Assembly (NCBI GenBank): GCA_031417555.1
Contig: JANOVV010000028.1
Coordinates: 9,914 to 73,913 of the forward strand
DNA: 64,000 nt
Reading direction: 5' to 3'
Source: Bacteroidota bacterium
GTDB taxonomy: Bacteria; Bacteroidota; Bacteroidia; AKYH767-A; 2013-40CM-41-45
Shown here: in pieces, positions 32,677 to 64,000 of the stretch
Layout of the letters: each line of letters begins with the position of its first letter
How positions within the stretch are numbered: the stretch's first letter is position 1
Position numbers and translations under genes: made by a program
The notes under the pieces: generated by a model
What the model was told of the DNA's origin: nothing
Seen by the model: the letters and a program-made list of their open reading frames with translations, nothing else
Databases searched by the model: none

Positions 32677-32743
32677 CAAATTTGCAACCTTTGAATTTAT
32701 ATAGTGTTACATAACTATTGAAATAAGTTACATTATTCTCACT
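32677..32743 (-). promoter_or_regulatory. Island promoter module, copy 2
   Basis: Cores at 32707 and 32728; -7 box CAAATTTG at 32677 (offset 30). Confidence 0.85.
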
Positions 32744-51034: not shown

Positions 51035-51100
51035 TAAAATTGGAAAATATCTGACGTTTGTCAGTTACACAACATTATGATAATGTTACATTATTCACAC
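51035..51100 (-). promoter_or_regulatory. Island promoter module, copy 9 (GH130-GT4 operon)
   Basis: Cores at 51065 and 51086; -7 box CAATTTTA at 51035 (offset 30). Confidence 0.85.
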
Positions 51101-51121: not shown

Positions 51122-52033
51122 TTACTTTTTAAATTTGTAAGTAAAAACTAATCCATTTATTTCACCGGTCGAAAAGGGCAATATACTCATACCTGTATTA
51201 TTATTTGATTTGGTTTTGTGATATTGTGGAACAAGTATTCCCGCTAAAACTCCTGTAGCTGTGCCTAATAAAATATCCGAAGGGAAATGTTCGCCACCTC
51301 TCAAGCGCATGTAAGCCGTTGCTCCGGTTGCCGCTGAGGCAATCCCATAAAACAACCACTTTACTTTTGAATCGGGGTGATAATCGGCATAAACCTTTGC
51401 GATAAAAAATGTTGGAGTTGCAACAACCTGAACGTGGCCTGCAAAGAATGAATTTTTTGCAATGCTGCCTGTTCGTTTGTCCATGGTTGTTTCTGATGTG
51501 TATGCATAAGGTCTGTACCTATCAATATGGTAAGTGGCACTTGTCCCCAATAGGCCCGTAATAGACATTGCTTCCCAGTATAAAAATCCAAGCTTTATAA
51601 AATCATTGCGTGTTTCTTTTCCGGTGAGGAAAAATACCAGGGGTAGGGGAATGGAAGCATAAAAAGGATAATAACTTATATCATCCAACGATTGAGAATA
51701 TGAATATACGGCCCATCGGTCGAAAGCATTTATATCTTCTTTCTTTAAGTTTTGAATTTGTTCAAGAGTAGGGGGTGTTTTATTATATATTTTGGTGAAT
51801 GCATAAACCGACCAGGCTGTACCAACAGCAACGATGGAAATGTCAACTGCTGGATTAAGAGTATATACAGGACCTGCAATTTTAATATTCGCTTCAGTTT
51901 TATCTTGCAAAACCAGTGTTTGGGATTTATCAATTATTGAATCCTGCGAATTTATAGTGGTTGAATCTATTTGTGAATAAACTGATATAAATGAAAAAAT
52001 GAAAAGTAAAAACAGAATATTATTTTTCCGCAT
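51122..52033 (-). CDS. PAP2-family phosphatase
   Basis: RYRPY, SFFAGH and R..GGEHFPSD motifs. Confidence 0.82.
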   Translation of the reverse strand: MRKNNILFLLFIFSFISVYSQIDSTTINSQDSIIDKSQTLVLQDKTEANIKIAGPVYTLNPAVDISIVAVGTAWSVYAFTKIYNKTPPTLEQIQNLKKEDINAFDRWAVYSYSQSLDDISYYPFYASIPLPLVFFLTGKETRNDFIKLGFLYWEAMSITGLLGTSATYHIDRYRPYAYTSETTMDKRTGSIAKNSFFAGHVQVVATPTFFIAKVYADYHPDSKVKWLFYGIASAATGATAYMRLRGGEHFPSDILLGTATGVLAGILVPQYHKTKSNNNTGMSILPFSTGEINGLVFTYKFKK

Positions 52034-52052
52034 AATTTATTTCAAAATATTT

Positions 52053-52637
52053 TTATTTTGTATGAATTGCTAATCCGATGGTTGATACACCGGTTGATAA
52101 ATCAAGGAAAATACCCAGATTATTATTTAAATGATATTCCGTACCGATGTGTAAATCGAAATTCATGTGACTGGAATGATTATAATAATTTCTATCACCG
52201 TAATAGTCATTATCCCATGATGAATTTACAATTGTGAATCCTAATGATGCTGCCAGGTAAAAATCCCATTTAGAATTTGCATTTAACAGTTGATCAAAAT
52301 AATATGTTCCTTTCAAACCAATTGGAATAACTGTTTCACGATAATAATAGTATTTATATGGATAATTCTTTTTTTTGTCACCCCAATAATAACTATTTGA
52401 ATAAGTATAAAAGCTAATGAATGGGGCTAATGTAAAATTAGTACCTGCATTTAATTCATAATCTATGTGAAAAACAGGTAAAGATCGTCCGGAATTTCCA
52501 TAATTCCCTGAATAGCCTCCTACACCCACACCTAAATTTAGGGTATTCCCGTAATTTTCCGTTGTGCGTGTTTCTTGAGCGGAGATATTTAAACTAAACA
52601 TTATTAATAAAAGCGAGGCAGTAATAAATGATTTCAT
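52053..52637 (-). CDS. Small exported beta-barrel-like protein
   Basis: Signal peptide and Tyr/Gly-rich amphipathic strands. Confidence 0.7.
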   Translation of the reverse strand: MKSFITASLLLIMFSLNISAQETRTTENYGNTLNLGVGVGGYSGNYGNSGRSLPVFHIDYELNAGTNFTLAPFISFYTYSNSYYWGDKKKNYPYKYYYYRETVIPIGLKGTYYFDQLLNANSKWDFYLAASLGFTIVNSSWDNDYYGDRNYYNHSSHMNFDLHIGTEYHLNNNLGIFLDLSTGVSTIGLAIHTK

Positions 52638-52675
52638 AAATTTTATATTTAAAATAGCAGAGTTGATATACTAAG

Positions 52676-52740
52676 CAAAGCTCGCCATTTTGCTCAACAC
52701 AGATTTACATAACTCTGTTAATAATTTACATCATTCACAC
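52676..52740 (-). promoter_or_regulatory. Island promoter module, copy 10
   Basis: Cores at 52705 and 52726; -7 box GAGCTTTG at 52676 (offset 29). Confidence 0.85.
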
Positions 52741-52784
52741 ATTAAATGATTTCAATTTATCTAGGGTAAATAAAATGACTGAAA

Positions 52785-53168
52785 TCAGACCTTTGAAAAA
52801 TGCTCTATGACAAAAGCATGTTTTTGATTTTCAGTCATTTTATCTGCTTGTTTTACTTCGATATTTATATTTTCAAATCGATGATCAGCTTTTAAAATAT
52901 TAAATAACTCAGCCTTGGCATCTGTCGGTCCAAAAATAATTACTTCATCAAATTTTCTAATTTCTTCACCCAATTTTTTATAATATTCGGATTGTTGATG
53001 TTGTTCTTTATTATGCATAAGTGATTCGCCCTTTCCCATACTAGTTGCCATTACTTCATGAGTAAATTTTGATTCAATTGTTTTTGATTCAATTGGACCG
53101 GTATTAACTTCCATCAAATGTGCACTTGCATGATCCAACCAAATACCTAAATATTTTGCTTTTGTCAT
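52785..53168 (-). CDS. Hypothetical protein, eRF1-domain-2 / host-attachment-like
   Basis: GIWLDH..A.L, YYKKL...I, IIFGP..AK.EL and DKMTENQ motifs. Confidence 0.6.
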   Translation of the reverse strand: MTKAKYLGIWLDHASAHLMEVNTGPIESKTIESKFTHEVMATSMGKGESLMHNKEQHQQSEYYKKLGEEIRKFDEVIIFGPTDAKAELFNILKADHRFENINIEVKQADKMTENQKHAFVIEHFSKV

Positions 53169-53240
53169 TTCTAATTTATTTGTTTTTATTTTGTTAAAAG
53201 AATAAATTTAATTGTAAATATTGTTTTTAAGAGCTTACAC

Positions 53241-53453
53241 TTAAATAATTGAATGATTACTTTCATATTTATTTAACAATGCTTCTAATGAATTATAATA
53301 ATCTTTAAGGATTTTAATATTTATTTCCGGATTTTCTGTATCTGGAATTGTAACCGGCATTTCAGCAATGTATTTAGTTAACTCCGGAAATTTATCCTGA
53401 ATAGTCATAGTTAATTTTAAAATATCACTATTCAATTCCTTTTCTGTTTTCAT
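53241..53453 (-). CDS. Hypothetical 70-aa protein
   Basis: ATG lies 18 bp from the -7 box of module copy 11; FPEL.KYI.EMPVTIP core. Confidence 0.75.
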   Translation of the reverse strand: MKTEKELNSDILKLTMTIQDKFPELTKYIAEMPVTIPDTENPEINIKILKDYYNSLEALLNKYESNHSII

Positions 53454-53470
53454 ATTGGATATTTAAAAAT

Positions 53471-53535
53471 CAAAGTTACTTTACCTGGAAATTATAATGT
53501 TATAAAAATTTTGAAATAAGTTACATTATTCCCAC
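53471..53535 (-). promoter_or_regulatory. Island promoter module, copy 11
   Basis: Cores at 53500 and 53521; -7 box TAACTTTG at 53471 (offset 29). Confidence 0.8.
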
Positions 53536-53604
53536 TTTCAGAAAAATGTTTCTTTCTACCAGTAAATTCAATTTTTTGAAAATTTACTTTTGATAAGTAT
53601 TATT

Positions 53605-55506
53605 TTATTCGGCGGGAATATAAATATCAAATTGTGCACCTTTATTTAATTCACTTTTAGCTGAGATTATTCCACTGTGATTTTCAACTATTTTTTTTAC
53701 GATTGCAAGCCCGATTCCAGTACCGGCATAAACTTCTTTACCGTGAAGTTTTTGGAACACTTCAAAAATACGTTCACTAAAGTGTGGCTCGAAGCCAATG
53801 CCATTATCTTTTATTGTGATATGGCAATAGTTCTTTCCGGATGAAAGTTTTGGATTATTTAATGTACTGCCTTTTACATTTTGACTCTTGATTGATATAA
53901 TCGGAGAAACACCGGGATTTGAAAATTTGAGTGCATTACTTATAAGATTGTACATAAGCTGGCGAAATTGAAAAGAAATAATGTTTGCATATCCAAGTTC
54001 AGTTGATTCAATTTTGGCTTGTTTTTCTTGAATGGTATCTCTTAATTCTGCTTTTACTTCTTCTATAATTAATTTTAGTTCTGTTTTTTCAAATTTTAGT
54101 TCTGTAGTGCTAATTCGCGAAAATGCCAGTAAATCATCAATAAGTTGTTGCATTCTTCCAGCAGCTAATTGCATCCTTTTAAAATTATATTGGCCATTTT
54201 CAGAGAGCTTTTCATTCTCAAGTATAATCGTAACAAAAGTTTGAATTTTACGAAGAGGTTCTTGCAAATCATGACTAGATACATAGGTGAAAGCAATAAG
54301 CTCTTTGTTGGCAATAATTAACTCGGCTGCTCGTTTTTCTTTCTCTTCATTTTGAAAAGCAAGTTCTTTGTTGGCAATGCCTAACTCTGCAGCCCGTTTT
54401 TCTTTCTCTTCATTTTGAAAAGCAAGTTCCTTGTTTGCAATACCTAACTCAGCTGCTCTTTTTTCTTTCTCTTCGTTTTGATAGGCGAGTTCTTTGTTGG
54501 CAACACCTAATTCTGCTGCTCGCTTTTCTTTTTCATCGTTTTGATAAGCAAGTTCTTTGTTGGCAATGCCTAACTCTGCAGCCCGTTTTTCTTTCTCAGC
54601 ATTTTCAAAGACAAGTTTTTTGTTGGCAATACCTAACTCATCTGCACGTTTTTCTTTCTCTTTGTTTTCAAAGGCAAGTTTTTTGTTGGCAATGCCTAAC
54701 TCCGCTGCCCGTTTTTCTTTTTCTTCATTTTGAAAAGCAAGTTCTTTATTAGCAATTCCTAATTCTGCTGCACGTTTTTCTTTTTCTTCGTTTTGAAAGG
54801 CTAGTTCTATGTTTGCAATACTTAGCTCCGCAGCGCGTTTTTCTTTTTCTTTATTTTGAAAGGCAAGTTCTTTGTTGGCAATGATTAATTCTGCCGCGCG
54901 TTTTTCTTTCTCTGCTGCCCGTTTTTCTTTTTCTATGTTTTGAAAAACTAGTTCTTTATTGGCAATGCCTAACTCTGCTGCTCTTTTTTCTTTCTCTTCG
55001 TTTTGATAGACAAGTTCTTTGTTGGCAATAATTAACTCTTCTGCCCGCTTTCCTTTCTCCTCGTCTTGAAAGACAAGTTCCTTGTTGGCAATGCCTAGCT
55101 CTGCTGCACGTTTCCCTTTCTCTTCATCTTGAAAGGCTAGTTCTATATTAGCAATGCCTAATTCTTCTGCCCGTTTTCCTTTCTCTTCGTCTTGAAAGGC
55201 TAGTTCTTTGTTAGCAATGCCCAACTCTGCCGCCCGCTTTTCTTTCTCTTCGTCTTGAAAGACTAGTTCCTTGTTAGCTATGCCTAACTCTGCCGCCCTT
55301 TTTCCTTTCTCTCCTTTTTGAAAGGCAAGCTCTTTGTTGGCAATCACTAACTCTGCTGCCCTTTTTCCTTTTTCTTCTTTTTGAATAACAAGTTCTTTGC
55401 GGGCAATCACTAATTCTGCTGCCAGTTTTTCTTTCTCTTCTTTTTGAACGGCAAGTTCTTTACGAAGAATGATTAACTCATTTTCCGTTTTATTTATTTT
55501 AACCAT
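53605..55506 (-). CDS. Soluble histidine kinase with an N-terminal 21-aa-repeat coiled coil
   Basis: H-box SHDLQEPLR, N-box NLISNALKF, G-boxes DNGIG and GTGIGL. Residues 8-403 are repeats; no TM helix. Confidence 0.93.
   Translation of the reverse strand: MVKINKTENELIILRKELAVQKEEKEKLAAELVIARKELVIQKEEKGKRAAELVIANKELAFQKGEKGKRAAELGIANKELVFQDEEKEKRAAELGIANKELAFQDEEKGKRAEELGIANIELAFQDEEKGKRAAELGIANKELVFQDEEKGKRAEELIIANKELVYQNEEKEKRAAELGIANKELVFQNIEKEKRAAEKEKRAAELIIANKELAFQNKEKEKRAAELSIANIELAFQNEEKEKRAAELGIANKELAFQNEEKEKRAAELGIANKKLAFENKEKEKRADELGIANKKLVFENAEKEKRAAELGIANKELAYQNDEKEKRAAELGVANKELAYQNEEKEKRAAELGIANKELAFQNEEKEKRAAELGIANKELAFQNEEKEKRAAELIIANKELIAFTYVSSHDLQEPLRKIQTFVTIILENEKLSENGQYNFKRMQLAAGRMQQLIDDLLAFSRISTTELKFEKTELKLIIEEVKAELRDTIQEKQAKIESTELGYANIISFQFRQLMYNLISNALKFSNPGVSPIISIKSQNVKGSTLNNPKLSSGKNYCHITIKDNGIGFEPHFSERIFEVFQKLHGKEVYAGTGIGLAIVKKIVENHSGIISAKSELNKGAQFDIYIPAE
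54298..55485 (-). repeat. 63-bp tandem repeat (AAELGIANKELAFQNEEKEKR): 17 full units, 2 partial units and one 21-bp insert
   Basis: Counted from the translation. The insert AAEKEKR lies at 54898-54918. Confidence 0.92.
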
Positions 55507-55534
55507 ATTCAGGCTTGATAAAGTTGATTTGTTT

Positions 55535-56020
55535 TTAATTAACTAAACTGTTTTCCAATGTGAGCACAAAATTTTCTATGGTCGGTTGTAATATATTTCC
55601 TGAATTACCGATTGGCAGGTCTCGCATTAAAATCGCAACAGTTTGTTGAATTAGTTTTTTCAACTGTGAAAATTCTGCCGGTTTGCGGATGAAATAGTGT
55701 GCCCCATTTTTGTAAAGCTGATTTACAACGTCTTGTTCAAAAGAAGTTGAGTATATGATTACAGGAAGTTTATTCAGACTGTTATTTAGTTTTATTTCAT
55801 TTAAACATTCGAAACCATTTTTTCTGGGCATATTTAGATCCAGGAAAAGTACATCCGGAAGTTGATGAGAATTTTCATCTAGGTATACCATTAATTTTTC
55901 ACCATCCATAACTATTGCAAGCTGCGTTGGAACTGTTAATGATTCTAATGCCATACTAAAAAAGAAACGGTCATCTTTGTCGTCATCTGCTAAAAGGATA
56001 CTCAATTGTTTTATACTCAT
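55535..56020 (-). CDS. Single-domain response regulator
   Basis: LLADDD, FLDLNMPRKNG, YSTS and IRKP motifs. Confidence 0.92.
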   Translation of the reverse strand: MSIKQLSILLADDDKDDRFFFSMALESLTVPTQLAIVMDGEKLMVYLDENSHQLPDVLFLDLNMPRKNGFECLNEIKLNNSLNKLPVIIYSTSFEQDVVNQLYKNGAHYFIRKPAEFSQLKKLIQQTVAILMRDLPIGNSGNILQPTIENFVLTLENSLVN

Positions 56021-56493
56021 GCGTTAAGAATGTATTTTAATTGACTGGCTGAAACTATTTTATCTGATGCTATTGGAATCGCATGTTGAATAACTTGCAT
56101 AAGTTGGTTGAAATTGCCGGGCTTGCGGATATATATATTGGCTCCAATCTTAAAGGCATGGTTTATAGAATCCCGCGAATTCGATGTTGAAAATATAACT
56201 ATTGGAAGATCTTTAAGTCTATCGTTTTTCTTTATTTCAGATAAACATTCGAAACCGTTTTTACGCGGCATATTGATGTCTAAGAATAAAAGATTGGGAA
56301 GATCAATAGTTTCATTAGTGAGCAGTTGCATGAGTTCTTCTCCGTCATTGACTGTTTTCAGATTTGTGGATAGATTTAATTTAGCTAACGCTTCTTTAAA
56401 AAAATTGCAATCGTCGGTATCGTCATCTGCAAGGAGAATGTTTAGTGTTTTTATTTTTTTATAGTTCGGTAATGGTTCGTATAATATTTTCAT
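56017..56493 (-). CDS. Single-domain response regulator
   Basis: LLADDD, FLDINMPRKNG, FSTS and IRKP motifs. Confidence 0.92.
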   Translation of the reverse strand: MKILYEPLPNYKKIKTLNILLADDDTDDCNFFKEALAKLNLSTNLKTVNDGEELMQLLTNETIDLPNLLFLDINMPRKNGFECLSEIKKNDRLKDLPIVIFSTSNSRDSINHAFKIGANIYIRKPGNFNQLMQVIQHAIPIASDKIVSASQLKYILNA

Positions 56494-56517
56494 TATTTAA
56501 TGTATTAATACAATTTA

Positions 56518-56976
56518 TTACTTTCCGGAGTCTTTGGATGATTGTAATTCTAATAGTTTTGTAAGTGAAAGTTCAATAATATTCCTTAATTGTTTGAAAT
56601 CACCGGGTTTTCGAATATAGTTTTGTGCTCCTATTTCGAAAAGTTTATTTGCCAGGTCCAACTCATAAACTTTATCCCGTGAATAAGATGTTGAAAACAC
56701 AACTACATGGATATCTTTCAGTTTAATATTTTCTTTTATTTCAGTTAAACATTCGTATCCTGTTTTGCGTGGCATGCTCAGATCAAGAAAAAGAATGTCA
56801 GGCAAGTGTTCTAGGCTCTTACCAAGATAATCCATAAGCTCTTCTCCATCATTGACAGTTTTAAGTTGAGTGGGAATAGTAATTTCCTTTAATGCGTTCT
56901 CGAAAAATAATCGATCGTCTTTATCATCATCTGCAAGTAAAATATTAATTACAGTATTCATTTGATTTGTTTTCAT
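56518..56976 (-). CDS. Single-domain response regulator
   Basis: LLADDD, FLDLSMPRKTG, FSTS and IRKP motifs. Confidence 0.92.
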   Translation of the reverse strand: MKTNQMNTVINILLADDDKDDRLFFENALKEITIPTQLKTVNDGEELMDYLGKSLEHLPDILFLDLSMPRKTGYECLTEIKENIKLKDIHVVVFSTSYSRDKVYELDLANKLFEIGAQNYIRKPGDFKQLRNIIELSLTKLLELQSSKDSGK

Positions 56977-56983
56977 ATTTAAT

Positions 56984-57418
56984 TTACATCCTCTCCATAT
57001 ACCAATTTAATTCTTTCTCCATTTTTTTGTAACGGAAAATTGTTGTAATAATTTTTCGTAAACGCATGAAGGCTGTTTCGCTTTTCACAACGTAGTCAAA
57101 AGCCCTGTGATGCATACAATTTACAGCGACTTCAATTTTATCCTGAGAGGATAACATAATAACAGGAATATCCTGATTATATGCTTTTATTTTATCCAAT
57201 GTTTCCATTCCATTCATTGCATTTTTATCGATACCATCGAGATGGTAATCTAGAATAATTACATCAGGACTGTGTGATAAATTTTCCATGCACAGTTCAC
57301 CTGTGGCAAATGTTTCGATTTCGAAATCGGCATTTTCTAAAAATTCTATTTCTAGTGATTTTAAAAAGACTGCATCATCATCTACTAAAAAGAGTTTAAT
57401 CTTACTTTCGTTTTTCAT
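56984..57418 (-). CDS. Single-domain response regulator (different subtype)
   Basis: FLVDDD, ILDYHL, LSSQD and DYVVKSET motifs; short C-terminal tail. Confidence 0.9.
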   Translation of the reverse strand: MKNESKIKLFLVDDDAVFLKSLEIEFLENADFEIETFATGELCMENLSHSPDVIILDYHLDGIDKNAMNGMETLDKIKAYNQDIPVIMLSSQDKIEVAVNCMHHRAFDYVVKSETAFMRLRKIITTIFRYKKMEKELNWYMERM

Positions 57419-59781
57419 TTATTTGTATTCTTTAATATATTATATTCATCTTCCAATTCTTTACAAGCTTGCATGCAAACTTTTTCAAGTTGTAATACTA
57501 AATCATTTATGTTTTCTGTTTGAAGTTGCGTATTTGCATATTCATGTACTTTTTTTGCTATATTTTCAAAATCTGTATGAATTCCCATAATTGAAAAAGA
57601 TGGAATCATTTTATGGGCCGCAGCTTGTAAAGAATTCCAATCTTTATTCTGCAGGCTTTGTTTCATATTATCAATTAATGATGGCGTTTGTTTTAAATAA
57701 AGACTAATCATTTCCATTATTAAAGCCGGATTTGATTTTGTATGTTTATTCAAATAGTTTAAATTGATATATTTTGCTATATTATCTTGTTTGCTTTTAT
57801 TTTGATTGTCCTGATTTATTTTTGTTTCAACTAATATAGATGTAGGTTTTCTTACTAAACTAATTATTTTGTTATACAACAATTCTTCGTTGACGGGTTT
57901 TGAAACATAATCGTTCATCCCAATCGCTTTGCATTTCGCTAAATCTACTGTTGTTACATCAGCTGTTAAAGCGATAATAGGAATTTTGGATTTCATTGTA
58001 TTCCTAATATATTCGGTGGCTTCAAATCCATTCATTTCAGGCATCTGTAAATCCATTAAAATAATGTCGTACGAATTAATTTTTAGTTTTTCAATAGCTA
58101 TCTTACCATTTTCTGCAATATCACGATCAAAACCTAAATCATCCAATATTGTTTTCATTAATAATTGATTAAGCGGAATGTCTTCAACAACTAATATTTT
58201 TACAGTTCTAATTTCTTTATTTATTTCTTCAGGTTCAATTTCTAAATTGACTTCTTCATTTGTTTTTTTAAAAGTCAAAGTAAAACTAAAAGTTGAACCT
58301 TCTTTAATCTTACTTTTTACATGGATAATTCCTCCTTGTGGTTCTACCAGTTGTTTCACAATGGCAAGCCCTAAGCCGGTTCCACCATATAATCGCGAGG
58401 TGCCGCTGGATGCTTGTTGAAAGTTTTCAAAAATATTTTCTAATTTATTTTCGGCTATTCCAATTCCTGTATCTGAAACCATAAATTCAATGGTGGCTTT
58501 TTCATTATTTTCACTAACCAGTCGGACGCTAACGGTTATTTTTCCACTGCTTGTAAATTTTACTGCATTACTAATCAGATTTAATATAATCTGATGCAAT
58601 CGTACCGGATCGCCTATAAGTACCTCCGGAATATTTTTGTCGTATTCTTTAACAAGTTCAAGATTCTTCTCCTGGATTTTTGTATCAAATAAATGAAGCA
58701 TTGCAGATATAGATAGCTCTAATTTAAAAGGGATTGCTTCAAATGACATTTTTCCTGAATCTACTTTGGCAAGATCAAGAATGTCGTTAATCAGAACTAT
58801 TAAAGCATCGCCACTCATTTTTATGGCAGTTAAATATTCTTTTTGTTTGGCCGTCAGGTCGGTTTTCAATACAACTTTTGTAAATCCTATTATTGCATTC
58901 ATCGGAGTGCGAATTTCATGACTCATGTTGGAAAGGAATTGCTGTTTGGCTTGAACTGCATTTTCTGCAATTATAGTTGCGCTTTCTGCATTAATCTTTG
59001 CTTTTTCGGCAATTTCAGTTGCTAATTCAGCAAATACTCTGGCTTCGATTAATTCTTTTTCTATTCTTTTTTGTTCTGTAATTACCCGGGCTACAACGAC
59101 AGCACCAAGTACTTTCCCTCTGTCGTCTTTATAAACGGATCCATTAAAAAGTACATCGGTTAGTTTTCCATCCATCATTGTTAATGGAAAGTCTTCTACA
59201 AAACCATTTGCAAAAACCTGTTTATAACCTTCGCGGGCTTTTTCCGGTTCTGTAAAATACCTGGAGAAATCTGAACCAATTAGTTTCTCTCGGGATACAT
59301 GTGTTATTTTTACTGAAGCATTATTCATATCAGAAATTTTTCCTTCTGAATTAATTGTAAAAAGAGGATCGCGACTTGCTTCAATAAGGCTTAATGAATA
59401 TTTTGAAAGTAATTTTTGTGTTGTAACATCTCTTGCGACAATCACAACACCGAGAACATTTCCTTTATCATCTTTGTAAACAGACCCATTGAATAATACA
59501 TCTGTCAATTTTCCATTTGTATGACGGAGTGTAAGTGGAGAATCAGTTACAGAACCATTAGCAAACACTTCCTGGTAAACTTCTCTTGCTTTTTGAGGCT
59601 CAGTAAAATAATCGAAAAAATCAGTACCGGTAAGTTTCTCACGGCTCATTCCGGTAATATTTGCCAATGCCTGATTCATGTCGGTTATTTTTCCATGAGT
59701 ATTTATAGTAACCAATGGATCTAAACTGGCTTCTATTAAACTTCTCGCATACTGCGATTCAGGCATATTATTATTTTCCAT
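57415..59781 (-). CDS. Soluble hybrid kinase: PAS-PAS-HisKA-HATPase-REC-Hpt
   Basis: Two similar PAS repeats (SLIEAS.DPL.TIN), H-box SHEIRTPM, GGTGLGL, receiver LMDLQMP and Hpt-like AAHKMIPS; no TM helix. Confidence 0.93.
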   Translation of the reverse strand: MENNNMPESQYARSLIEASLDPLVTINTHGKITDMNQALANITGMSREKLTGTDFFDYFTEPQKAREVYQEVFANGSVTDSPLTLRHTNGKLTDVLFNGSVYKDDKGNVLGVVIVARDVTTQKLLSKYSLSLIEASRDPLFTINSEGKISDMNNASVKITHVSREKLIGSDFSRYFTEPEKAREGYKQVFANGFVEDFPLTMMDGKLTDVLFNGSVYKDDRGKVLGAVVVARVITEQKRIEKELIEARVFAELATEIAEKAKINAESATIIAENAVQAKQQFLSNMSHEIRTPMNAIIGFTKVVLKTDLTAKQKEYLTAIKMSGDALIVLINDILDLAKVDSGKMSFEAIPFKLELSISAMLHLFDTKIQEKNLELVKEYDKNIPEVLIGDPVRLHQIILNLISNAVKFTSSGKITVSVRLVSENNEKATIEFMVSDTGIGIAENKLENIFENFQQASSGTSRLYGGTGLGLAIVKQLVEPQGGIIHVKSKIKEGSTFSFTLTFKKTNEEVNLEIEPEEINKEIRTVKILVVEDIPLNQLLMKTILDDLGFDRDIAENGKIAIEKLKINSYDIILMDLQMPEMNGFEATEYIRNTMKSKIPIIALTADVTTVDLAKCKAIGMNDYVSKPVNEELLYNKIISLVRKPTSILVETKINQDNQNKSKQDNIAKYINLNYLNKHTKSNPALIMEMISLYLKQTPSLIDNMKQSLQNKDWNSLQAAAHKMIPSFSIMGIHTDFENIAKKVHEYANTQLQTENINDLVLQLEKVCMQACKELEDEYNILKNTNK

Positions 59782-59810
59782 TTATTCCGATACTATTTAT
59801 TGGGAGTAAA

Positions 59811-60398
59811 TCAATTATTATTTATTTGAATCTGATTGCCTATTTCTTCTATTGGCATTCGCTTTTTATCTTTTAATTTCTTGAAGTGCGATGGAGAAAG
59901 ACCTGTAACTTTTTTAAATTGATTTGAAAGATGAGCAACACTACTGTAATTCATTTTCCATGCAATTTCTGTAATATTTAATTCTCCGTAAATCATTAAT
60001 TCTTTTATCCGTTCAATTTTATGTGAAATGATAAATTGCTCTATAGTCGTTCCTTGTACTTCTGAAAATAAATTCGATAAATAGGTATAATCATGATTTA
60101 ATTTTTTACTCAAAAAATCAGAAAAATTGGTTTTTATTATTTCATCAGTATGATGAACCATTTCGATAATTACATTTTTAATTTTTTCGATTAATACTGC
60201 GCGTTTGTCATCCATCAATTCTAGACCGGAATTCAGCAATACAACCTTCATTTCTTCGCGTTGTTCAATAGAAATATTTTCCATGATTTCAACTTCGCCT
60301 AAATCAACAACAATAAAATGTAATCCAAGACTTTTTAATGCTTCTTTAACCGCCAATTTACAGCGATTACTGACCATGTATTTGATGTATATTTTCAA
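59811..60398 (-). CDS. AraC-family regulator with an HMA-like N-terminal domain (paralog 2, probable TTG start)
   Basis: TTG at 60398 gives MKIYIKYMVSNRC, which aligns with paralog 1. The ORF-track start at 60428 lies inside the -7 box. HTH is ITEIAWKMNYSSVAHLSNQFKKVTGLSPS. Confidence 0.9.
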   Translation of the reverse strand: MKIYIKYMVSNRCKLAVKEALKSLGLHFIVVDLGEVEIMENISIEQREEMKVVLLNSGLELMDDKRAVLIEKIKNVIIEMVHHTDEIIKTNFSDFLSKKLNHDYTYLSNLFSEVQGTTIEQFIISHKIERIKELMIYGELNITEIAWKMNYSSVAHLSNQFKKVTGLSPSHFKKLKDKKRMPIEEIGNQIQINNN

Positions 60399-60425
60399 AT
60401 GGTTCTGTTTTAATTGAGACTTGTA

Positions 60426-60491
60426 CAAATTTGTGTTTTTTAAGACCTGTAATTGTTATAGAACTTTCTTTAATTGTTACATAATTCACAC
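60426..60491 (-). promoter_or_regulatory. Island promoter module, copy 12 (AraC-phosphorelay operon)
   Basis: Cores at 60456 and 60477; -7 box CAAATTTG at 60426 (offset 30). Confidence 0.85.
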
Positions 60492-60695
60492 ATTATCAAC
60501 TAGTAAATTAAATTACCTGTTTCATAAAGCATAGGTGTTGAGTATGTTAACTTCGATTTAAAAAAGCTTAAGATTTTAGCGTTTATTTATTACAACCTTA
60601 AAAACGAAATAAATAATTTTTCTAAACAATTTTTATCCTGTTATTAATTTACAATTTAAATAGGAAAGGATGCCAATGATTAAGAATTTTCATTT

Positions 60696-60761
60696 ACAAT
60701 AATTATATAATTATTATCCTTTTATATGTAAGTAAAAGAATATAAATCATATTCACCTTAG
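60696..60761 (+). promoter_or_regulatory. Island promoter module, copy 13 (degenerate)
   Basis: TATATAA ending at 60710, ATGTAA ending at 60731 and -7 box CACCTTAG ending at 60761, giving the same 21/30 geometry. Confidence 0.6.
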
Positions 60762-60787
60762 CCAAAAAAATTGCGTAGTATAATAAA

Positions 60788-63133
60788 ATGATTCTAAAAC
60801 ATAAATTAAGAAAAATACTTTTAATAGTAATCGGTGTATTACTTATTACTTCTGTTGTAATAATTTTATTCATTTCACCAATTACTAAATATTTAATTGA
60901 AAAAAATGATGAAAAATATACTGGTAGAAAAATTACAATTGATTGGGCATACGTAAATCCTTTTACCGGCTTTGTACATTTAAAAAATATAAAAATTAAT
61001 GAATTCAAAAGTGACAGTATTTTCTTTTCTTCCAATGGACTTAGTATTAATTTTTCACTTTATAAATTATTTTCTAAAACTTATGAGATAAGTGAGCTAA
61101 CCTTGGATAAGCCTCGGGGATATATTATTCAAAATAAAAACGATTTTAATTTTAATGATATTATTAAAATGTTTTCACCCGATGAAGTTATAGATACTAC
61201 CAAACTTCCTTTGCACTTTAACATACTTAGCATAAAAATTAAGAATGGAGAATTCTATTACCACGAGCCACTAATTCCTATCAATTATTATATTAAAAAT
61301 GTAAATTTAGAAAGTACCGGTAAACGTTGGGATTCTGATTCTATAACAACTTCTATTTCATTTGTGCCTGGTATTGGAAGTGGTGAAATAAAGGGTAACA
61401 TAACTATAAATTTGAAAAACAATGACTATCATTTTGATGTTAGAATTAAAAAGTTTGATTTAAATATCATTGGGCAATATTTAAAAGATTTGACCAATTA
61501 TGGTAATTTTTCTGCAAACCTTGATGCTGATGTCAAATCAAAAGGAAATTTTAACGATCCTCAGGATGTGACCACTAAAGGGTTCATTCAGATTAATGAC
61601 TTTCATTTTGGGAAAACAAACATAAATGATTATGCATCTTTTGATAAATTATCTTTAACGATGAAAGAAATAAGTCCTAAAAATCATATTTATCTTTTTG
61701 ATTCTGTAATACTAAGTCATCCTTATTTTAAATATGAGAGATATGATTATTTGGATAATATTCAGACCATGTTTGGTGTTGATGGATCAAATCTGACTGC
61801 TGCTAATGCTAGTAATACTAAATTTAATTTGGTAATAGAAATTGCGGATTATGTTAAAATACTTGGTAGAAACTTTTTTCAAAGCTATTATCAAATTAAC
61901 AGGTTTGCTATTAATAAAGGTGATATTAAGTTTAATGATTTTTCTTTGGGTGAAAAATTTTCTGTGGATTTAAATCCATTATCTATTGTTGCAGATTCTG
62001 TCGATAAAAACCATAATCGGGCAAATGTTTTTTTTAAAACCGGCATTAAGCCATATGGTGATGCCGAAGTAAATCTCAGTATAAATCCAAAAGATACGGG
62101 AGATTTTGATATGCAATATAATCTTAAAAAATTTCCAGCATCTATGTTTAACCCGTATTTAATCTCATATACATCTTTTCCGCTTGATAGGGGAACGATT
62201 GAAGTTAACGGTACGTGGAATGTCAGAAATGGAATTATCAAAAGTGATAATCATTTGGTTATTATAGATCCTCGTGCTACTAAAAGATTGAGGAATAAAG
62301 ATGCTAAATGGATACCGTTGCCATTGATATTATCATTTATTCGTGAGCGTGGAAATGTAATCGATTATGAAATTCCAATAACCGGAAATATGAAGAATCC
62401 AAAATTCCATTTACGCGATGTGATTTTTGATTTACTTGAAAATATTTTTGTGAAACCTGCGACAACATCGTATAGGTTGCAAGTTAAAAATATTGAAACT
62501 GAAATAGAGAAATCGCTTACTTTAAAATGGGGACTTCGAAATTCTGAATTGCTTCCTACACAGGTTAAATTTTTAGAAAAAATGGCTAACTTCCTGGAGA
62601 AAAATCCTGAGTCAGGCATCGTAATATATCCTCATGTTTACACAATAAAGGAAAAAGAATATATCCTTCTTTATGAAGCAAAAAAGAGGTATTATATAGC
62701 ATCAAATAATATCGATGCTCGAATGTACAATGAACATGATTCTGAGCTTGTAGATAAGATGGCCATAAAAGATACACTTTTTGTTCAATACCTGAATAAG
62801 CAGGTAAACGATTCAATGGTATTTACAATTCAAGAAAAATGTTCCAGAGTTATCGACGAGTCGATAGTAAATGATAAGTTCAGGAAATTAAAGAAAGATA
62901 GGGAAGAAGCATTTAAAATTTACTTTAAAGAAAATGATGTTATTAAGAGAATTGAATTAAGCGAGACTGAAAATGTAATTCCTTACAATGGATTTTCATA
63001 TTATAAAATCAAATATAAAGGAGAATTACCGGAATATTTGATTGATGCTTATAAAAAAATGAACGAATTAAACGATGAGGCACCACGCGATAAATTTAAA
63101 AATTTCCGTAAAAAGGATAAGAGTGTATTATAA
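60788..63133 (+). CDS. DUF748 / AsmA-like envelope protein
   Basis: N-terminal membrane anchor, GRKI.I....VNPF.G, long beta-rich body and IDYEIPITG....PKF. Confidence 0.75.
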   Translation: MILKHKLRKILLIVIGVLLITSVVIILFISPITKYLIEKNDEKYTGRKITIDWAYVNPFTGFVHLKNIKINEFKSDSIFFSSNGLSINFSLYKLFSKTYEISELTLDKPRGYIIQNKNDFNFNDIIKMFSPDEVIDTTKLPLHFNILSIKIKNGEFYYHEPLIPINYYIKNVNLESTGKRWDSDSITTSISFVPGIGSGEIKGNITINLKNNDYHFDVRIKKFDLNIIGQYLKDLTNYGNFSANLDADVKSKGNFNDPQDVTTKGFIQINDFHFGKTNINDYASFDKLSLTMKEISPKNHIYLFDSVILSHPYFKYERYDYLDNIQTMFGVDGSNLTAANASNTKFNLVIEIADYVKILGRNFFQSYYQINRFAINKGDIKFNDFSLGEKFSVDLNPLSIVADSVDKNHNRANVFFKTGIKPYGDAEVNLSINPKDTGDFDMQYNLKKFPASMFNPYLISYTSFPLDRGTIEVNGTWNVRNGIIKSDNHLVIIDPRATKRLRNKDAKWIPLPLILSFIRERGNVIDYEIPITGNMKNPKFHLRDVIFDLLENIFVKPATTSYRLQVKNIETEIEKSLTLKWGLRNSELLPTQVKFLEKMANFLEKNPESGIVIYPHVYTIKEKEYILLYEAKKRYYIASNNIDARMYNEHDSELVDKMAIKDTLFVQYLNKQVNDSMVFTIQEKCSRVIDESIVNDKFRKLKKDREEAFKIYFKENDVIKRIELSETENVIPYNGFSYYKIKYKGELPEYLIDAYKKMNELNDEAPRDKFKNFRKKDKSVL

Positions 63134-63184
63134 TGGAATAAAATATAAGACGATTAATTCATTTTCAATAGATGAATTGCACAA

Positions 63185-63250
63185 ACGTGAATTATGTAAC
63201 TTATACCAAAAGTTTTGTAACATGCAAAACATTCTATATTCATTTCTTTG
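63185..63250 (+). promoter_or_regulatory. Island promoter module, copy 14
   Basis: GTGAATTATGTAAC-ttataccaaaa-GTTTTGTAAC; cores end at 63199 and 63220; -7 box TTTCTTTG ends at 63250. Confidence 0.85.
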
Positions 63251-63304
63251 CAGTCTTATTTATGAAGTAAAATAATTTTTAAACAATTAATTATACAAAT
63301 TTCT

Positions 63305-64000
63305 ATGAAAAAATATGTTTTTATTGCTGCAACTGCATTAGTAATGTCAGCTTGTAATCAAAATGAACTTACGGAATCAAATCGCCAGAAAGATTCATTG
63401 ATGTCAGTTGTCAATGAGCGTGATTCATTTATTAACGACTTTATTTCTTCGTTTAATGATGTGGAAAGGAATCTTGATTCTGTTGCTGTAAGACAGCATA
63501 TTATTGCTGTTAATTCAGATAAGCCCGGTGAGCTAAAGCCTACTCAGAAAGCAAGAATTAATGCGGAGATTGCTTCTATTAATAGTTTAATGGATCAAAA
63601 TCGAAAAAAAATTGCTGAATTAAATCGTAAAATCAAAAATTCATCAAGCAAAAATGCACAGCTAGAGAAAATGATTGCTACACTTAACGATCAGTTGGCT
63701 AAGAAAGATATAGAACTCGCCGATTTAAATGCGAAGCTGAATTCATTAAATGCACAAGTAGCTACTTTAGAGACTTCAGTTGATACTCTCATGGCTCGCA
63801 ATGGTGCTCAATCACAAACTATTGCTGAAGAAACAATGGCTTTACATACAGCTTACTTTGTGGTCGGTAAATCAAATGATTTACAAGATGCAAAAATCAT
63901 CGACAGAAAAGGCGGACTGCTTGGTATTGGCAGAACTTCTAAATTAAGTCAGGATTTCGATAACAGTAAGTTTACTCGAATCGATTACACGGTAACAAAT
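63305..64000 (+). CDS. Coiled-coil lipoprotein, 3' truncated (not in the ORF track); resembles Bacteroides Cbp1-like lipoproteins
   Basis: Starts MKKYVFIAATALVMSAC (lipobox), then a long heptad region and AYFVVG...KGGLLGIG; runs off the window end. Confidence 0.75.
   Translation, partial: MKKYVFIAATALVMSACNQNELTESNRQKDSLMSVVNERDSFINDFISSFNDVERNLDSVAVRQHIIAVNSDKPGELKPTQKARINAEIASINSLMDQNRKKIAELNRKIKNSSSKNAQLEKMIATLNDQLAKKDIELADLNAKLNSLNAQVATLETSVDTLMARNGAQSQTIAEETMALHTAYFVVGKSNDLQDAKIIDRKGGLLGIGRTSKLSQDFDNSKFTRIDYTVTN

Follow-up and report, generated by a model that had tools for sequence, protein, structure and literature searches.

How can a histidine kinase be regulated when everything N-terminal to its catalytic machinery is a repeated helical segment? 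The question is raised by a gene in the 64,000-nucleotide stretch of a Bacteroidota bacterium (contig JANOVV010000028.1, positions 9,914 to 73,913) that was analyzed here and is termed the window. The encoded protein, termed the repeat kinase, carries an array of 21-amino acid units placed directly before the phospho-acceptor histidine, and by sequence alignment the unit reads as a repeated version of the coiled-coil neck found just before the H-box of phytochrome-type kinases. The elements of the gene, in window coordinates, are the following.

53605..55506, minus strand: repeat-rod histidine kinase gene, 633 aa (open reading frame (ORF) list; Pfam HisKA and HATPase_c only; 100% self-match in the genome search)
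54331..55485, minus strand: array (aa 8-392) with 18 of the 21-aa units, of which the first is degenerate and 17 are full, consensus AAELGIANKELAFQNEEKEKR (unit table; Tandem Repeats Finder (TRF) period 63; a profile search recovers every unit)
54898..54918, minus strand: 7-aa partial unit AAEKEKR, aa 197-203, the sole departure from the 21-aa spacing (TRF 21-nt duplication at 54890-54934)
54268..54330, minus strand: 19th and last unit, a hybrid with the first 11 residues normal and the remainder already belonging to the DHp helix, H-box included (His412, nt 54271-54273; unit table; ungapped alignment to the phytochrome-kinase neck and H-box and to 8f71)
54109..54291, minus strand: predicted HisKA (DHp) domain, aa 406-466 (Pfam PF00512)
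53611..53970, minus strand: predicted HATPase_c catalytic domain, aa 513-632 (Pfam PF02518; N, G1, F and G2 box residues invariant)

The first-pass annotation of this DNA had described a sensor-less kinase with about 19 three-heptad units of 21 aa running into the H-box helix, and the ORF, the Pfam matches, the unit parse and the AlphaFold model all agree with that description at these coordinates. Two Pfam families match the protein, HisKA with E 5e-10 and HATPase_c with E 4.3e-19, and PAS, GAF and PHY give no Pfam match in the 633 residues even at E up to 1. Matches to NCBIfam models are confined to the C-terminal kinase part and all lie below the cut-offs. Pfam matches to PH_SLA1, BACON_2 and Gp10-like families were rejected as compositional artifacts, no single stretch passing alone. 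An overlooked N-terminal domain has no room, as just 12 in-frame codons lie upstream of the ORF before a stop and the upstream neighbor ends 28 bp away. In a 65-sequence alignment His412, the phospho-acceptor of the H-box, Asp413 and Pro417 are invariant, and the same holds for Asn520, Asn524, Asp567, Gly569, Gly571, Phe581, Phe584, Gly595, Gly597 and Gly599, residues of the segments generally called the N, G1, F and G2 boxes of HATPase_c. Both features examined for membership in the class I (HisKA-type) histidine kinases, a DHp domain with an H-box and the HATPase_c boxes, are present, and the repeat kinase is a predicted soluble, catalytically intact kinase of this class without a PAS, GAF, or transmembrane segment.

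The 19 units begin at residues 8, 29, ..., 176, 204, ..., 393, and the parse upholds the earlier observation that AAEKEKR, exactly 7 aa in length, is the single irregularity. With a period of 63, TRF reports 54298-54913 (9.8 copies, 83% matches) and 54910-55461 (8.8 copies, 82%). The DNA identity among the 17 full units is 70-92% with a mean of 81%, the longest exact repeat inside the array is 52 bp, and over the 136 unit pairs (2856 codon comparisons) there are 799 synonymous and 569 non-synonymous differences. With this degree of divergence the array is not the product of one recent slippage event, as had also been concluded at first reading.

The assignment of the unit to a kinase neck draws on the matches in the PDB, all of which start at residue 369 or later (8f71, E 2.9e-37; 9ys3 and 8uph, E 2e-24; 8avv, E 3.8e-15). 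Residues 385-414, the last unit with the H-box, align ungapped to 8uph, 9ys3, and 8f71. The bacteriophytochrome kinases (DrBphP, PDB codes 8avv/8avw/8avx; 8uph; 9ys3) have homologous HisKA and HATPase_c domains and share the neck motif of Leu, Ser-Asn, Glu-Leu, Phe, and the H-box, but their PAS-GAF-PHY photosensor is absent from the repeat kinase, in which the neck of about 21 residues is iterated 19 times. A further difference from the phytochrome-type neck is that the repeat unit is one residue shorter between Leu and Phe than the final copy joined to the DHp domain. The Ser-Asn pair of the DrBphP neck, 13 and 12 residues before the histidine, aligns to Ala7-Asn8 of the unit. The histidine itself we take to be His532, consistent with the 14-residue offset in the PDB alignment. 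Transfer from the neck would set the heptad register with Ala1, Asn8, and Asn15 at position a and Leu4, Leu11, and Lys18 at position d. According to the 2022 cryo-EM study, Leu502, Leu506, and Ile509 hold the DrBphP neck together as a parallel coiled coil, with Asn513, Ser519, and Asn520 forming cross-dimer hydrogen bonds, and the neck unzips in the Pfr state (PMC9744887).

A second type of coil upstream of the DHp domain is the S-helix, a parallel coiled coil that extends over five heptads, or about 40 residues, and carries Asn at a and ERT at positions c-d-e of its central heptad (Anantharaman, Balaji and Aravind 2006, PMC1592074). The array resembles it in its placement before the DHp domain, in Asn at a, in a Glu-basic-polar triplet at c-d-e (Glu17-Lys18-Glu19 in the transferred register), and in a polar d position (the Arg of ERT in the S-helix). 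In contrast, the S-helix is a single module with ERT, the unit of the array spans three heptads and is repeated 19 times, and the ERT signature is absent from all of its units.

The spacing of the units was followed in the repeat kinase together with 267 homologs (268 proteins), scanned with a position matrix derived from the units of the window protein, which yielded 3058 units. Of the 2747 spacings below 100 aa between consecutive units, 2673 equal 21, 64 are other multiples of 7 (28 in 35 cases, 35 in 13, 42 in 9, 63 in 4, and 49, 56, and 77 once each), and 10 are not multiples. The expectation that length changes across homologs come in steps of 7 is thus met by 64 of the 74 irregular spacings. 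Leaving out multiples of 21, which may contain missed units, 51 irregular spacings are in heptad phase and 10 are out of it, compared with about 1/7 in phase by chance. The same pattern holds in the 73 sensor-less homologs (28 in 16 cases, 35 in 6, 42 once; 23 once as the non-multiple) and in 83 ORFs from genome loci (28 in 24 cases, 35 twice, 42 and 49; non-multiples 45, 59, and 71). The inserts are truncated units short of one or two heptads, of the AAEKEKR type (12 times), AEEKEKR (8 times), or 14-mers such as ADELILANKEKEKR. A mutational bias in sequences rich in Glu-Lys-Glu-Lys should favor slippage by two residues, yet the spacing 23 occurs once, and for this reason the rule would reflect selection, with length changes tolerated almost solely in steps of 7. 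Four homologs of the Cyclobacteriaceae/Chryseolinea type (P0045, P0067, P0070, and P0130) share a 17-residue unit with a four-residue deletion, giving a spacing of 38 (21 + 17); this unit is a conserved exception and would create a local stammer-like discontinuity.

A dependence of function on linker length in seven-residue steps is described for PAS/LOV linkers in the Moglich review (PMC6798134). The PAS/LOV-coiled coil-DHp kinases of the YF1 and FixL type are similar to the repeat kinase in that the coiled coil is continuous into the DHp domain, and the natural indels found here follow the same heptad rule. Their linkers differ in consisting of a few heptads that join a sensor to a kinase, compared with about 57 heptads and a free N terminus in the repeat kinase. 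Since the rule also holds in proteins with a free N terminus, it does not concern the phase between sensor and kinase and points to continuity of the supercoil.

The spacings also bear on the idea that the rod is a spacer made of a monomeric ER/K-type single α-helix. The composition of the 385-aa array (84 Glu, 61 Lys, 20 Arg, and 63 Ala) would suit such a helix, NEEKEKRAAE offers Glu/Lys pairs from i to i + 4, and the hydrophobic core is poor. A free helix, however, needs no heptad indels, and the irregular spacings fall in heptad phase in the proportion given above (51 of 61 even when multiples of 21 are left out). Leu4 and Leu11 are moreover 98% conserved and Asn8 matches the interface Asn of a solved dimeric neck, which makes a monomeric spacer very improbable.

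That the array is helical is supported, at the level of prediction, by several lines. The AlphaFold2 monomer, calculated with the 65-sequence alignment, has helices at residues 2-118, 129-283, and 305-431, of which the third joins the repeats to His412 and beyond without a break, and the 385-aa array contains no Pro (count 0). Positions 10 and 14 covary, with Glu14 present in 30 of 88 Lys10 units compared with 40 of 2903 Glu10 units, across 15 proteins, and among the 15 top mutual-information pairs 7 lie at i + 3 or i + 4 and 3 at i + 7; these figures are taken as supportive of a helix and not beyond that, because relatedness inflates them. A β-hairpin fold, suggested by the i/i + 2 spacing of Leu4/Ile6 and Leu11/Phe13 and by weak β-rich Pfam matches, was ruled out by the AlphaFold helix, the i + 3/i + 4 covariation, and the homology to a solved helical neck. 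An α-helix rises by about 0.148 nm per residue. The approximately 404 helical residues would accordingly measure about 60 nm if straight and continuous. A two-copy dimer prediction for residues 204-392, run without controls, gave a score of 0.00 and speaks neither for nor against a dimer. Two neighboring units at 54583-54708 (aa 267-308) carry the coupled changes Glu10 to Lys and Gln14 to Glu (ANKKL..FEN), a pair kept in the ortholog of the closest relative (G015), and the AlphaFold confidence is lowest in this area.

The conservation of the unit over the 3058 copies is high at almost every residue. It amounts to 91% for Ala1, 96% for Glu3, 98% for Leu4, 79% for Ile6, 97% for Ala7, 92% for Asn8, 95% for Glu10, 98% for Leu11, 84% for Phe13, 96% for Gln14, 80% for Asn15, 96% for Glu17, 97% for Lys18, and 96% for Arg21. 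In the transferred register three of the six core positions per unit are apolar and Asn, Asn, and Lys fill the remaining three, so that the coiled coil looks deliberately weak. The conserved exposed residues together with the stripe of Ile6 and Phe13 suggest an extra interaction surface for self-association or for a partner, and this pattern is the most interesting unexplained feature of the repeat.

The stripe gives rise to a reading in which the rod is a scaffold or self-assembly module, the Ile6/Phe13 face, about 160 degrees from the Leu stripe, packing dimers laterally into bundles, sheets, or arrays or docking a conserved non-repeat partner at each unit and thereby clustering or localizing the kinase. 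Exposed positions conserved at 79-98% across the phylum are typical of interaction surfaces, many arrays lie at a free N terminus where they could not relay a signal, and in the AlphaFold monomer the helix tends to pack on itself. Open 'alpha-sheet' assemblies reportedly show, after Walshaw and Woolfson in 2001, a pattern of two heptad seams with an offset of two residues. Weighed against this, no partner has been identified, the source genome has no other repeat gene (which excludes a paralogous repeat partner), and the hydrophobic f positions could reflect a different register; a scaffold is thus an unlikely explanation.

A further proposal, already put forward by the first-pass annotation, is that the rod itself senses temperature, ionic strength, water activity, or crowding. 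A marginally stable zipper would then melt or tighten with such a variable and so switch the kinase, copy number tuning the midpoint or the cooperativity. The protein has no other sensory domain, polar residues take half of the inferred core, and the homologous phytochrome neck signals by unzipping (PMC9744887). However, a coil of 400 residues with about 38 Leu layers may be much too stable to melt under physiological conditions. The distribution of the array among relatives adds a point to either side.

These relatives form a large family. A word-indexed protein search returned 7963 of 8000 scored candidates at E ≤ 1e-3. When the repeat region alone (aa 1-400) was compared exhaustively with representatives at 50% identity, 1566 proteins matched at E ≤ 1e-3, of which 952 reached E ≤ 1e-10 and 369 reached E ≤ 1e-30. 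Among species-representative genomes, a relative is encoded by at least 575 of the 609 pattern matches listed. The 80 genome loci kept for the analysis of context and length belong to Saprospirales, Chitinophagaceae, Sphingobacteriaceae, Flavobacterium, Mucilaginibacter, Cyclobacteriaceae, Cytophagales, Bacteroidales, and Ignavibacteriota/Kapaibacteria, with one record carrying a Clostridia label. The architectures comprise the array joined to the kinase (the sensor-less form), PAS-array-kinase, array-PAS-array-kinase, and hybrid kinases with receivers. Strictly sensor-less homologs make up 73 of the 267 retrieved and have 7-13 units in 396-538 aa; in the genome loci, 39 of the 83 ORFs with at least 5 units are sensor-less with 5-26 units, a set in which ranking against a long query favors long arrays. 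The rarity that had been implied for the repeat kinase is contradicted by the size of the family and by sensor-less members of up to 26 units, and the protein is a typical, longish but not extreme member. No published description of the repeat or of the family was found in the full-text literature searched, the coverage of which excludes subscription journals.

The unit count varies between close relatives. Complete genes of the same genus have 6-11 units (G008, G011, and G014), compared with 19 in the repeat kinase, and genomes of other genera in the same order have 8 (G029) and 22 (G022). In G015, a congener, merging of the contig ends on a 45-aa overlap gives about 15 units without the 7-aa piece, a count made uncertain by the contig break. 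In a further genome of the genus (G007) an array of about 15-17 units is fused N-terminally to a PAS-PAS hybrid kinase. In this fused gene (L089, G007:C9, 1453-2700 + 2583-3857, minus strand) the frame shifts within the first PAS domain and two overlapping frames repeat the same PAS start, which points to a frameshift or else to a fault of assembly or duplication. The longest array found is in an uncultured Chitinophaga metagenome-assembled genome (L020, 5255-8980), where a 1241-aa PAS-containing kinase has 39 units with one PAS-sized interruption of 143 aa; its gene is preceded by a hybrid kinase gene and by five single-domain receiver genes in a row. In the source genome, where all six-frame ORFs of ≥ 50 aa were scanned with a strict motif and searched with a profile at maximum sensitivity, the repeat is confined to the repeat kinase gene, and pairing of the rod with a paralogous repeat protein was on this ground rejected for that genome.

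For the proposal that the rod is the sensor, the variation in unit number between congeneric species is a point in favor. On the other hand, the array also occurs N-terminal to and between PAS domains and in hybrid kinases, where a dedicated sensor exists, and its presence beside PAS domains in many relatives marks it as a general module and not as the dedicated sensor of the repeat kinase. The sensing rod is for these reasons considered improbable, at much the same level as the scaffold.

Another explanation holds that the length of the array is an artifact of a short-read metagenome bin in which repeats were collapsed or expanded. Eight public runs from two studies contain most of the window, and fragmented contigs from four of them were compared with the array. 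Pieces that match exactly (0 differences, flank-like depth) together cover 53740-54361, 54406-54714, 54722-55196, and 55167-55800, which leaves about 51 bp of the array between the pieces, and the 7-aa partial unit is present with 0 differences in runs X1 and X3, one from each study. No contig in the four runs bridges the whole array. The few contig 'joints' over the array have sides of <33 letters and probably stem from repeat genes of other organisms. Over 54308-54895 the summed contig depth is 10-50x that of the flanks in all four sediment metagenomes, which indicates that many other community members carry near-identical stretches and does not measure copy number. The closest relative, G015, has a kinase part 95% identical to that of the repeat kinase and a gene split across two contigs (L093 and L082, C232 and C172) whose ends, inside the array, share an identical 45-aa stretch; such a break shows the region to be hard for short-read assembly. 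This break and the missing bridge speak for an artifact, but the units differ by 8-30% in DNA with no exact internal repeat beyond the 52 bp noted above, the exact-match pieces come from four runs and two studies at flank-like depth, and arrays of 5-26 units are usual in hundreds of independent genomes. Mis-assembly is unlikely because the units diverge from one another, and an artifactual array length is the least probable of the explanations weighed here.

In its genomic context the repeat kinase gene closes a series of seven genes on the same strand, in which neighbors either overlap by 4 bp or have 7-29 bp between them. The six genes upstream of it are the following.

55535..56020, minus strand: RECa, predicted single-domain receiver, 161 aa (Pfam Response_reg; 28 bp upstream of the kinase gene)
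56017..56493, minus strand: RECb, predicted single-domain receiver, 158 aa (Pfam Response_reg; 4-bp overlap with RECa)
56518..56976, minus strand: RECc, predicted single-domain receiver, 152 aa (Pfam Response_reg)
56984..57418, minus strand: RECd, predicted single-domain receiver of a different subtype, 144 aa (Pfam Response_reg; 4-bp overlap with the hybrid kinase gene; paired with the hybrid kinase in related loci)
57415..59781, minus strand: predicted hybrid kinase PAS-PAS-HisKA-HATPase_c-REC-(HPt), 788 aa (Pfam; HPt match below the curated cut-off)
59811..60428, minus strand: predicted AraC-type HTH regulator without a receiver domain, 205 aa, the first gene of the operon (Pfam HTH_18, HTH_AraC)

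By eye, the acidic pocket, phospho-acceptor Asp, Ser/Thr, and Lys are all retained in the three paralogous receivers RECa-c. The context was tallied by BLAST in 74 loci, which are the 80 loci less 3 without a BLAST match and 3 without a clear target ORF, and a receiver neighbor was defined as a single-domain gene of <200 aa within 250 bp on the same strand. Such a neighbor is present on at least one side in 48 of the 74 loci, and in 47 of the 61 that are evaluable with ≥ 600 bp of flank on both sides. From 1 to 5 receivers stand directly upstream, the RECa-like one adjoining, in 22 of the 74 loci, mostly with sensor-less forms, and a receiver stands directly downstream in 32 loci, mostly with longer forms. 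Four loci (L005, L020, L026, and L052) share with the window the gene order hybrid kinase, RECd, RECc, RECb, RECa, repeat kinase. An AraC gene comes before the hybrid kinase in L005, L026, and other loci, and G015 has RECc-RECb-RECa-kinase on the contig that ends in the array. In six loci (L024, L051, L064, L069, L074, and L078) the AraC-linked hybrid kinase bears repeats itself. The operon of AraC regulator, hybrid kinase, four receivers, and repeat kinase is conserved.

Among the genes scanned in 51122-64000 there is no CheB or CheR gene of the kind that is adjacent or fused in MAC (methyl-accepting coiled-coil) kinases. The neighbors matched by Pfam are the four receivers, the hybrid kinase, the AraC regulator, PAP2, and DUF748/AsmA, and three small ORFs (70, 127, and 194 aa) are without a Pfam match. 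Just before the AraC start, at 60445-60480 (minus strand), are two copies of the 11-nt word T[G/A]TAACAATTA, 21 nt apart, which would fit a putative autoregulatory tandem AraC site. Divergent from the operon are a DUF748/AsmA-family protein (781 aa, 60788-63133, plus strand) and an open-ended coiled-coil protein (63305-64000, plus strand). The number of GTAAC-N16-GTAAC sites in the window is not significant (3 compared with 1.05 expected, 11 of 100 shuffles reaching 3), and none is at the kinase gene; the three sites, at 32706-32731 (minus), 51064-51089 (minus), and 63196-63221 (plus), share further bases, the third being about 85 bp upstream of ORF 63305. A scan of the operon for sigma-70 promoters and terminators was uninformative, with 43 promoter-like sites compared with 34.8 expected.

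The explanation favored for the repeat kinase is that the rod clamps the DHp domain and is tunable in length, and that the kinase serves the RECa-c branch of the relay encoded by the operon; as a whole this is considered somewhat more probable than its negation. The N-terminal 400 or so residues would form one long α-helix per chain, and by analogy with the solved neck two such helices would most likely associate, in parallel and in register, into a two-stranded coiled coil that leads into helix 1 of the DHp domain. The rod would then be a length-tunable dimerization clamp, whose zippered or frayed state may set the balance between kinase and phosphatase activity of the DHp domain. The half-polar core would make the zipper tunable, and the number of units may set its stability or cooperativity. 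The kinase may exchange phosphate with RECa-c, forming an accessory branch of the phosphorelay of AraC regulator, hybrid kinase, and RECd. As there is no ligand-binding domain in cis, the input would come from a partner acting on the rod or the DHp domain or from a bulk physical variable acting on zipper stability; the candidates are a partner protein or a phosphorylated receiver that acts in trans, a physical variable, or none, the kinase then being a constitutive source or sink. A clamp with its input in trans or with constitutive activity is given a little under an even chance.

Several observations weigh against this explanation. The AlphaFold2 monomer has low-confidence breaks at residues 119-128 and 284-304 and folds back there (pLDDT 70.6, pTM 0.39), the breaks coinciding with the most deviant units. 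The continuous rod of about 60 nm envisaged at first reading is on this evidence sustained in its helical character, the monomer being all helical, but is interrupted at two places in the model, and its length follows from helix geometry. The register depends on one solved neck and on the numbering of His532, and another may apply, with Leu at a and Ala7, Gln14, and Arg21 at d. Ile6 (79%) and Phe13 (84%) fall on the outward f position of the transferred register, a stripe that a plain two-stranded coil leaves unexplained, and nearly all polar positions are also conserved at ≥ 90%, more than a clamp requires. In 14 of the 61 evaluable loci no receiver gene is adjacent, and the phosphotransfer partners and the input signal are purely inferred.

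A more elaborate possibility joins the two faces of the helix. The seam of Leu4/Leu11 and Asn8/Asn15 would form a weak parallel dimer, the Ile6/Phe13 seam would associate rods of about 60 nm or recruit a partner at each unit, and the resulting length-tunable cooperative assemblies would read temperature, ionic strength, or crowding into an AraC stress phosphorelay found throughout the Bacteroidota. This combination is regarded as doubtful, more so than either the scaffold or the sensing rod taken singly.

The coiled-coil linker is accepted as the wire from sensor to kinase, and its heptad rule has been shown mainly by engineering short linkers. Thousands of natural kinases copy this wire from 5 to about 40 times, often without a sensor, with the heptad rule kept and the unit nearly fixed across a phylum. 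The conserved operon of AraC regulator and hybrid kinase in the Bacteroidota is flagged by the present analysis as carrying an uncharacterized accessory branch of three receivers and a repeat kinase, and the family as a whole provides a natural length series for asking whether a long signaling coiled coil acts as a clamp, a sensor, a ruler, or an assembly surface.

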